Source of the DNA: a virus
Virus record (IMG/VR): IMGVR_UViG_3300042474_001633
Span: 1 to 64,000 of that record
DNA: 64,000 bases
Reading direction: 5' to 3' (one strand)
Shown: in pieces, positions 55,805 through 57,312 of the stretch
Layout of the letters: the number at the start of each line of letters is the position of its first letter
Numbering within the stretch: position 1 is the stretch's first letter
The notes under the pieces: model-generated
The model's database searches: none
Told to the model about the DNA's origin: nothing
The model's input: only the letters and a program-made list of their open reading frames with translations
Position numbers and translations under genes: made by a program

Positions 55805-56155
55805 CTAAACCTGGGCGCGGACATTGGCGTTGAGGGTTCGCAAGGCATCAATACTCGTCCTGAGTGAAAGAAGTTTTTCTCGCTTTGCCCTAACTAGTGC
55901 TTCCGCGATTTCGTAATCCTCTTTCATTTGTTCCATCTTGTAATGAGACCATTGCTCTCTGTCGGTGATTGTTCTGTGCCCCTTGCCAGCAGCTCCTAGA
56001 TATTCTTTTGCCCATTCCGCCTTGTACCTGGCGTCTTTTTTTGCAGCGTCCACGGCGAGTATTTCAAAGTTTTCAGTTTCTTTTTCGAGCAGGTCGAGCA
56101 GTCTCATCATTTCTCGTTCAATGTCCACCTGGCTGATTGGTTGACTTCTATTCAT
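55805..56155 (-). CDS. Hypothetical coiled-coil protein
   Basis: 116-aa helical ORF overlapping the end of the RuvC-like gene. Confidence 0.65.
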   Translation of the reverse strand: MNRSQPISQVDIEREMMRLLDLLEKETENFEILAVDAAKKDARYKAEWAKEYLGAAGKGHRTITDREQWSHYKMEQMKEDYEIAEALVRAKREKLLSLRTSIDALRTLNANVRAQV

Positions 56156-56678
56156 TTTCTATCCCTTCGAGTGGGGACCAGTCTATCTTCTCTAGCGCCG
56201 AGAGAGAAATGTTTGACCACTTATATTTTGCATTTCCAATTTTTGCCAAAACCATTTCTTCAAGAACCCACGCATCGCACATATCATCAGCATGCCCCCC
56301 TTTCCAAACTATTCCCGTAATAGCTGATATTGCAGATATGACTTCTGACTTGCCAGCGTTCCCTTTGCCTGTGGCAAATTTTGCTCGACAAGTAGGAGGC
56401 ACGATTATGTATGGAATATCAAGATTTAGCAAGGCAACCCTGACAACACCGCCAAGCTCCCCAATTGAGTGAGCCTGAGAATTTCTTGATGCAAAAGAAT
56501 AACCCTCTATGGCTACCAATTGTATTTTGTTGGAAACCGCAATATTGCCAATTTCGCTGGCTATTTTCCTCAATCTTTCAGCTCCAGATAAATCAAAAGA
56601 AAGATAACCAGCTTCTCCAGCATGGCAATACCCAGTGGATGTAAGTGATAGGTCGAGACCTAGGATGTTCATGGGCAC
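56148..56678 (-). CDS. RuvC-like Holliday junction resolvase
   Basis: ILGLDLSLTSTG, VAIEGY, ELGGV, KFATGKGNA.K and DD..DA RNase H-fold acidic residues. Confidence 0.88.
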   Translation of the reverse strand: MPMNILGLDLSLTSTGYCHAGEAGYLSFDLSGAERLRKIASEIGNIAVSNKIQLVAIEGYSFASRNSQAHSIGELGGVVRVALLNLDIPYIIVPPTCRAKFATGKGNAGKSEVISAISAITGIVWKGGHADDMCDAWVLEEMVLAKIGNAKYKWSNISLSALEKIDWSPLEGIENE

Positions 56679-56693
56679 GCAAAACTCTACCCC

Positions 56694-56728
56694 ACAAACA
56701 AAGACCCGCCGGGTGTAATCCCGACGGG
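56694..56728 (-). terminator. Intrinsic terminator closing candidate sRNA B
   Basis: CCCGUCGGG-AUUACA-CCCGGCGGG (9 bp, one G.U that forms only on the minus strand) followed by UCUUUGUUUG. Confidence 0.7.
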
Positions 56729-56822
56729 AATTAACACAGACAGACGTCCATGTCTACTTTGCGTAGTTATTCACCACTAGACCTTGGACCACCTGCCTTT
56801 CTTTTCTCAGAAACGGCTGTAA
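56695..56822 (-). ncRNA. Candidate sRNA B with 16S rRNA 3'-end (anti-SD) complement
   Basis: Extended -10 TGgTACTCT (56829-56837); AGAAAGGCAGGUGGUCCAA at 56784-56802; internal hairpins; terminator; no ORF longer than a few codons behind the SD-like tract. Confidence 0.55.
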
Positions 56823-56881
56823 GACCTTAGAGTACCATTACAAAATTATTAGCTCAGGTAAAGAGATGTTGGCGCGCACAT

Positions 56882-56942
56882 AAAAAAAGAGACGCAAGAA
56901 CCGGGGGCTGCACGTTGCCCTGTGCCCCCGGCCCTCGCGCCT
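56882..56942 (-). terminator. Long intrinsic terminator hairpin (3' part of sRNA A; could also end HNH transcription)
   Basis: AGGCGCGAGGGCCGGGGGC pairs with GCCCCCGGUUCUUGCGUCU, then CUUUUUUU. Confidence 0.8.
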
Positions 56943-56958
56943 ATAACGGTCCTAAGGA
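56882..56958 (-). ncRNA. Candidate sRNA A with 5' complement of 23S rRNA helix 69
   Basis: TAGAAT -10 (56964-56969); CCUUAGGACCGUUAUAG (56941-56957); 19-bp stem with four G.U pairs; U7 tract. Confidence 0.6.
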
Positions 56959-57009: not shown

Positions 57010-57312
57010 TTAACGTTCCCAGCCGTGCTTGGCTAAACCTAAATCAAAAGCAAGCTGCGGATAGTTTCCAATTCGATTGTGACATGGCCTGCATACCGCA
57101 AGAAGATTTTCCTCATCGAGTATCGACCCACCCTGAGAGCGTCTAATTATTTCGTGAATGTCGCAACTTCTGTTACGAACATATGTCAACTTCTCGTCAT
57201 GTTCAGCAAATACAGGACACGCTTCGCAAAATGGTTTTTTTGACAAAAGTTTTTCTACGAGCGGGCGCCTCAGCAAATACTCTTCTTGTTTCTTTTTTGA
57301 ACGATATTTCAC
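57010..57312 (-). CDS. HNH endonuclease
   Basis: CEAC...DIHE...RSQGGS....NL..VCRPCHN. Confidence 0.88.
   Translation of the reverse strand: MKYRSKKKQEEYLLRRPLVEKLLSKKPFCEACPVFAEHDEKLTYVRNRSCDIHEIIRRSQGGSILDEENLLAVCRPCHNRIGNYPQLAFDLGLAKHGWER

Follow-up and report, generated by a model that had tools for sequence, protein, structure and literature searches.

Between the HNH endonuclease and RuvC-like resolvase genes of an uncultured phage from a lake lies a unit of ~125 nt, from promoter to terminator, which on the strength of its signals, its conserved hairpins and the conservation of its complement to 16S rRNA is a discrete RNA gene, here called sRNA B. We give about even weight to the proposal that it is an independently transcribed RNA that would dock on the free 16S tail like an over-long Shine-Dalgarno (SD) sequence, geneless in this phage. 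From the sequence we infer transcription of sRNA B, its binding to ribosomes, an effect on translation and, as had been put forward in the preliminary description of this DNA, trapping of 30S subunits. sRNA B probably acts jointly with a neighbouring RNA, sRNA A, and these phages probably target host ribosomes with RNA.

The putative sRNA B unit and its genomic setting

The source record is a 160,282-bp IMG/VR virus, and the window, i.e. the whole stretch of DNA analysed (64,000 nt), is its first 64 kb. The 331-nt intergenic gap between the HNH and RuvC-like genes is occupied by two tandem minus-strand units, A and B, with a terminator at the end of each, and the genes around the gap encode recombination functions (Rad52, a PD-(D/E)XK nuclease and a ParB-like protein). 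The coordinates and sequences given in the preliminary description were all found correct on re-reading. The features are listed in the order of minus-strand transcription:

57010-57312, minus strand: HNH endonuclease gene
56885-56957, minus strand: sRNA A, with the 5'-terminal CCUUAGGACCGUUAUAG antisense to 23S rRNA 1914-1930 (helix 69) and a long terminator after it
56829-56837, minus strand: extended -10 promoter TGG-TACTCT of sRNA B, by match to the consensus, with the predicted start near 56822
56809-56817, minus strand: 5' strand of helix P1, GCC(G)UUUCU, a mimic of the 16S tail within the RNA itself, masking block 1
56784-56802, minus strand: seed AGAAAGGCAGGUGGUCCAA, read from the sequence as AGAAAGG-C-AGGUGGUCCAA
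56796-56802, minus strand: seed block 1, AGAAAGG, complementary to the last 7 nt of 16S rRNA (CCUUUCU-3')
56795, minus strand: linker C, bulged opposite the anti-SD and paired with G56817 in P1
56787-56794, minus strand: seed block 2, AGGUGGUC, complementary to 16S G1530-U1537 (GAUCACCU) with one G.U
56784-56786, minus strand: CAA, extending the complement into helix 45 (16S 1527-1529) in this subfamily only
56777-56781, minus strand: UCUAG, invariant in all versions
56763-56777, minus strand: hairpin P2, GUGGU-GAAUA-ACUAC, followed by the conserved G(G)CAA (56762-56758)
56734-56753, minus strand: hairpin P3, ACAUGGAC-GUCU-GUCUGUGU, variable across the family
56695-56728, minus strand: intrinsic terminator from a terminator scan, with the stem at 56728-56705 and the U-run at 56704-56695
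56678-56689, minus strand: TAGAGT -10 box and GUG start of the RuvC-like gene, 5 nt apart and directly after the sRNA B terminator
56148-56678, minus strand: RuvC-like resolvase gene

No ORF of at least 40 aa was found on either strand over 56679-56848, and none of the Rfam, tRNA and tmRNA models matched sRNA B at the gathering score; at E <= 10 the highest-ranking Rfam hit, to McaS, lay on the opposite strand and had 19 bits vs the threshold of 42. The phage has no DNA similarity to cultured phages (50,697 records), and a search of the literature found no account of such a phage RNA. The exact 19-mer seed is also present in 13 IMG/VR contigs, in which the flanks have diverged. With the use of a covariance model, a motif scan and RuvC-anchored loci, ~38 distinct versions of sRNA B were gathered from IMG/VR lake-phage contigs, in every case with RuvC a short way downstream.

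In the 37 distinct relatives with enough upstream sequence, a TANNNT box is always present 31-53 nt ahead of block 2, with a TGN extension in 19. At the other end of the unit the terminator proposed earlier was upheld by compensatory changes, its consensus comprising 8-10 pairs of which six show such changes. On these consensus signals and covariation, sRNA B shares with trans-acting sRNAs the possession of its own promoter and intrinsic terminator.

RNAalifold applied to MAFFT alignments recovered the terminator and parts of P1 and P2; since register slips in those alignments mask the remainder, P2 was counted on an anchor-based alignment. Across 30 distinct versions its four outer pairs are canonical in 100 % of cases, vs 32 % after a shift of the partner strand by one position. 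Pairs 2, 3 and 4 show compensatory changes, the observed value was equalled in 0 of 2000 strand shuffles, and the G.U pairs of P2 are compatible with the minus strand only. P2 is thereby the conserved fold, and the small hairpin CUAC-GCAAA-GUAG described before is not conserved. Comparison of P3 with its counterpart in L084, by eye only, gave one compensatory change of C-G to U-A and one change of U.G to C-G. Every version carries, unchanged, UCUAG ahead of P2 and G(G)CAA behind it, and neither motif is explained by 16S pairing or by a conserved helix.

Among 69 distinct regions upstream of RuvC, taken without bias, both RNAs are present in 26 (18 with A before B and 8 with B before A), B only in 8, A only in 7 and neither in 28. 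In many of the last group HNH abuts RuvC; the HNH stop abuts or overlaps the RuvC start in loci L029, L039, L045, L056, L065, L072, L075, L080 and L081. Because HNH abuts RuvC in relatives, the sRNA module gives the impression of having been inserted into a pre-existing HNH-RuvC pair. This insertion-like character and the flanking genes for an HNH endonuclease and a resolvase could also suit an element acting at the DNA level, e.g. a site for homing or recombination next to the HNH gene, instead of an RNA gene. Such an element is extremely improbable, as the hairpins are kept by compensatory changes and by G.U pairs that fit one strand only, and the promoter and terminator signals are conserved. 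A split IscB-like system composed of HNH, RuvC and guide-like RNAs was considered as well and dropped, since both proteins are ordinary small phage enzymes and many relatives are devoid of the RNAs.

The RuvC-like gene appears, from its start region, to be leaderless with its own promoter, and the RuvC starts of the relatives have the same layout of TANNNT, 5 or 7 nt, start. The starts of both the RuvC-like and the HNH gene (57312, minus strand) lie 5-7 nt past TANNNT and have no SD, i.e. they show the leaderless layout. In the whole phage genome leaderless-type starts constitute 14 % of first starts vs 2.3 % of control codons, and a candidate SD at -8 kcal/mol or better was found for 84 of 183 phage ORFs (~46 %).

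Complementarity to the 16S rRNA tail and its conservation

The actinobacterial 16S tail GCGGCUGGAUCACCUCCUUUCU was found in 224 of 401 sampled Actinomycetes genomes, in 150 of 150 among the matches listed, and also in five streamlined genomes of 1.3-1.5 Mb. The tally takes in one unpublished genome, G374, on which no claim depends. With this tail the seed forms 7 + 10 bp flanking one bulged C, with one G.U, and with the UUGG-type tail (as in E. coli) it forms 18 bp. An extended complement of 17-18 bp with one bulged C and one G.U had been noticed in the first reading, and its strength was confirmed: the seed gives -27.6 kcal/mol, in comparison to -11.6 kcal/mol for a strong ordinary SD and -31.1 kcal/mol for a perfect complement, which makes the pairing ~2.4 times as stable as that of a strong SD. 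The seed site is the top tail complement on both strands of the 160-kb genome, with the runner-up at -21.1 kcal/mol (a gap of 6.5), and the best SD of any phage gene, at about -15 kcal/mol, is far weaker. Composition-preserving shuffles of the seed gave a mean of -11.4 +/- 3.1 kcal/mol and 0 of 300 were as strong as the seed.

The complement is conserved while its flanks diverge. All 27 distinct seeds hold 14-17 bp with the tail at -21.5 to -28.9 kcal/mol. Block 1 is all-purine throughout the family (RGRRRGG), its sole changes being A<->G opposite U, and GGUGGUC of block 2 is invariant with the exception of L054 (GGUGAUC). The linker, opposite the central U, varies freely in both length and identity (C, U, CA, CG, AC, AU, CGA, CAA or UCA); since it is never a plain A, GGAGG is never restored and the SD core is interrupted in every family member. 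The conserved complement corresponds exactly to the free 16S tail, from G1530 to the 3' end (E. coli numbering). The reach into helix 45, part of the original observation, stands for this subfamily, in which it is provided by CAA (56786-56784), and is not kept in distant relatives, which have AAA, CCG, CUA, UUA or GAA in its place.

Part of the seed can be masked within the RNA. In P1, which is contained in the RNAalifold consensus, pairing is possible between GCCGUUUCU (56817-56809) and AGAAAGGC (56802-56795), one G being bulged. The purine block is paired upstream in 32 of 38 MFE folds vs 26.8 +/- 2.6 for shuffled sequences, a modest excess. In several relatives the 5' strand pairs with most of the seed, in differing registers, and in L054 an A->G change of the seed is matched by an upstream U->C change, compensatory in P1. 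Block 2 lies outside every conserved helix of the consensus fold. The notion of a seed half hidden by fold-back is in this way extended to the whole family, with P1 varying in register. The interruption of the SD core together with the masking of most of the seed in several relatives would lower the affinity for the tail.

Seed duplexes of similar energy are predicted elsewhere in the phage genome, two of them with the strand opposite terminator hairpins. Taken with the classic build of promoter, conserved seed, hairpins and terminator, and with the unexplained invariant UCUAG and GGCAA that could be a protein site, such duplexes would be in line with an ordinary sRNA that acts by base pairing, or with a protein sponge; its target would be a host or phage mRNA or an RNA-binding protein, and its SD likeness would be incidental. 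We consider this improbable. These duplexes are at the chance level for 320,000 windows, the 19-mer has no perfect match on either strand in one genome each of 185,579 prokaryote species, and a two-block match to one pre-specified 15-nt site with wobble-only changes is hard to call incidental. Copies of GAAAGGCAGGTG at 129726 and 126376 (minus strand, outside the window) were rejected as unrelated loops or stems of ordinary terminators. The hairpins of these terminators hold the seed 12-mer GAAAGGCAGGUG, with a stem formed with CACUUGC and a GAAA-type loop, and the occurrence of this 12-mer is most likely a coincidence.

The single G.U wobble of block 2 finds an explanation at the DNA level in the avoidance of GATC, since a Watson-Crick A at this position would give the perfect complement GGTGATC and thereby create a GATC site. 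GATC has 0 occurrences in the 160-kb genome vs about 497-621 expected, and it is absent from 30 of 38 related contigs, the other 8 showing normal counts. The only version with the Watson-Crick A, L054, resides in a GATC-tolerant contig, and the 7 other tolerant contigs keep G; the distribution of the A variant (1 of 8 tolerant vs 0 of 30 GATC-free contigs) is suggestive, not significant. GATC avoidance therefore accounts for the wobble without proving its cause. The lack of GATC points to hosts with a GATC-cutting restriction system, and a wobble driven by it would be a clean case of restriction avoidance shaping the sequence of a functional RNA.

Start codons and RNAs of similar build

The triplet directly ahead of UCUAG is AGG (56784-56782) in the window and AUG, GUG or UUG in some relatives. 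The preliminary description had left a choice between a decoy without a gene and a mini-ORF RNA, and each part of it holds for some of the family. In 15 of 38 versions the triplet is a start codon (AUG in 12, UUG in 2 and GUG in 1) that opens an ORF of 13-19 codons, mostly 14; these versions make up the subfamily with B before A, plus L054. The other 23 versions, the window included, have no start after the site, the triplet being AGG, AAG, GAG, GAA, AAA, ATA, AGT or CAA.

The first group could reflect a tiny mRNA, in which a long SD loads or stalls ribosomes on an ORF of ~14 codons and translation itself is the function; the window copy would then be a start-less derivative. The three triplets found there are all start codons, the ORFs occur in three diverged subgroups with different peptide tails, and the AGGUGGUCCA-AUG geometry is that of genuine ribosome-binding sites of unrelated phages, e.g. 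GAAAGGAAGGTGATCCA-ATG. rreB, an RNA of similar build (see below), likewise encodes 14 aa. We nevertheless regard a tiny mRNA or its derivative as rather unlikely, as 23 of 38 versions have no start codon, yet the nucleotides surrounding the triplet are invariant. The peptide is not conserved, as judged by the frameshift after MSSGF in L054. The 7-codon ORF MVNNYAK pointed out earlier does begin with GUG at 56777, 12 nt after AGGUG, and ends in a stop, but it is not conserved: several relatives have GUA or GCG instead of its GUG, and the length of the ORF varies erratically. This subfamily has no conserved ORF. To the question posed at the outset, whether homologues conserve the complement or the peptide, the answer is the complement, kept in 27 of 27 seeds, with MVNNYAK lost.

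Among the genuine ribosome-binding sites of unrelated IMG/VR phages (loci L095-L201), GAAAGG-N-AGGTGATCCA with ATG, GTG or TTG immediately after it is common. Since these sites serve genuine phage genes, long SDs of such geometry drive real genes.

The closest known RNAs to the proposed 16S-docking RNA are the small mRNAs rreB and rreR and the STAB-SD element. rreB of Alphaproteobacteria (Hahn et al. 2016) carries a 17-nt complement with a short single-stranded seed and a part concealed by a hairpin; the RNA sediments together with 30S subunits (PMC5711450). Its overexpression does not slow growth, which was ascribed to ribosomes far outnumbering the RNA (PMC5711450). The likeness of rreB/rreR and sRNA B is one of build, not of sequence homology: these are short RNAs running from promoter to terminator, with a ~17-nt complement to the 16S 3' end placed partly in a hairpin and a short single-stranded toehold, which is predicted in the case of sRNA B. 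The 16S complementarity of at least 16 nt of the rreB/rreR type is found in sRNA B, with its 17 bp, and the AUG-bearing relatives of sRNA B have mostly 14 codons, in comparison to the 14 aa of rreB. There are also differences. The complement of sRNA B is always broken by a bulge or mismatch of 1-3 nt, whereas that of rreB is uninterrupted, and the window copy has AGG instead of the sORF which in rreB/rreR lies at the end of the complement. rreB and rreR are alphaproteobacterial chromosomal genes; sRNA B is phage-borne, with its 19-mer absent from the 185,579 species genomes, and unlike rreB/rreR it is paired with an anti-23S small RNA.

STAB-SD, located in the cry3A leader of Bacillus thuringiensis, is an SD-like sequence with no translation start; it base-pairs to the 3' end of 16S rRNA and stops RNase J1 (PMC4113751), which shows that geneless SD sites can work by 30S binding. 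In the window copy sRNA B similarly has an SD-like site complementary to the 16S 3' end with no start codon. By analogy, a 30S subunit bound near the 5' end could block the 5'-3' decay by RNase J of sRNA B itself or of read-through transcripts. The seed lies ~20-40 nt from the predicted 5' end, as would suit such a stabiliser, and STAB-SD sets the precedent of blocking RNase J1 by 30S pairing without a translation start. STAB-SD, however, belongs to a long mRNA, which it protects from within the 5' UTR; the seed of sRNA B is followed within ~100 nt by a strong covarying terminator and the next gene has its own -10 box. In type II loci, moreover, the unit after sRNA B is sRNA A, not a protein gene, and the protection of an RNA without any other function would explain nothing. 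A role as stabiliser is for these reasons of low probability.

Two other factors that would act on the small subunit are more remote. Phage-encoded bS21 (PMC9723584) resembles sRNA B as a phage factor aimed at the anti-SD region on the 30S platform, and differs from it in being a protein, from other phage lineages and hosts. Val-tRF of Haloferax volcanii (PMC11009984) resembles sRNA B as a small RNA whose binding to the small subunit would compete with that of mRNA; it is a cellular tRNA fragment acting at the decoding site, not via an SD/anti-SD helix.

The partner RNA and the proposed action on the ribosome

The 5'-terminal 17-mer of sRNA A is an exact antisense of E. coli 23S 1914-1930. Helix 69 is an element of the subunit bridge B2a. 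sRNA A is itself conserved. A and B are encoded on the same strand, within ~180 nt of each other in most relatives and in either order. Antisense 10-mers to rRNA cluster at 23S 1900-1950 only, and the sense-strand control shows no such cluster. A pairing of A with B (GGUCCAAGG with CCUUAGGACC, 9 bp) is present in this subfamily only.

If sRNA B docks on the 16S tail as proposed, the exposed half of the seed (AGGUGGUC, with CAA in this subfamily) would serve as a toehold on GAUCACCU. Pairing would then spread to the last seven nucleotides of the tail, displacing the tail-mimicking 5' strand of the RNA itself, and the anti-SD of the bound 30S subunit would be occupied. Together with its anti-helix-69 neighbour sRNA A, it could sequester free subunits during infection, whereby initiation that depends on an SD would be damped or re-routed. 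We put forward more tentatively that A and B form a two-RNA module gripping the anti-SD tail of 16S and helix 69 of 23S rRNA, which would hold free 30S and 50S subunits and might switch, hibernate or protect the ribosome pool.

A general block of translation would hurt the phage as well, since a candidate SD precedes 84 of its 183 ORFs. Nor can a clean switch to leaderless messages be taken for granted, because removal of the anti-SD in mycobacteria halts nearly all translation (PMC12274833). The same work demonstrated that MazF-mt11, a toxin of Actinomycetota, cleaves 30S subunits at C/ACCU, immediately ahead of the anti-SD, and attacks single strands only (PMC12274833), which shows that the 16S tail is a physiological target in Actinomycetota. 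sRNA B might accordingly be imagined as a shield, keeping the 16S tail double-stranded and so protected from single-strand nucleases of the host that are involved in abortive infection or toxin-antitoxin systems. The invariant block 2 covers exactly the MazF-mt11 site, and counter-defences are common among phages; but no such toxin is known from the host, and a shielded tail would also be unable to read SD sites.

The partner RNA fits a shield poorly, as it matches helix 69, which to our knowledge is not a reported MazF site. Protection of the tail thus seems quite unlikely.

If sRNA B binds ribosomes, phages of abundant freshwater Actinomycetota would steer translation by RNA and not by protein, and the two sites that decide on initiation and subunit joining would be targeted. 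sRNA B would then provide, in natural form, an anti-SD ligand that is compact and tunable and is designed around a bulged toehold masked by the RNA itself. The puzzling class of rreB and STAB-SD would be extended to viruses, and the old question of what a geneless SD site does would become testable. Should the two-RNA module be real, it would represent a natural class of trans-acting antisense RNAs directed against functional centres of both subunits.

Other small promoter-to-terminator units with register-shifted anti-23S seeds were observed in the same slot in L010, L013 and L044 (~130 nt upstream of RuvC) and in L034 (~100 nt). One such seed, UCGCUACCUGAGGACC, is antisense, apart from one mismatch, to approximately 23S 1922-1937; another, ACCCGACAAGG, is antisense to 23S 1941-1951 and, being an 11-mer, could be due to chance.
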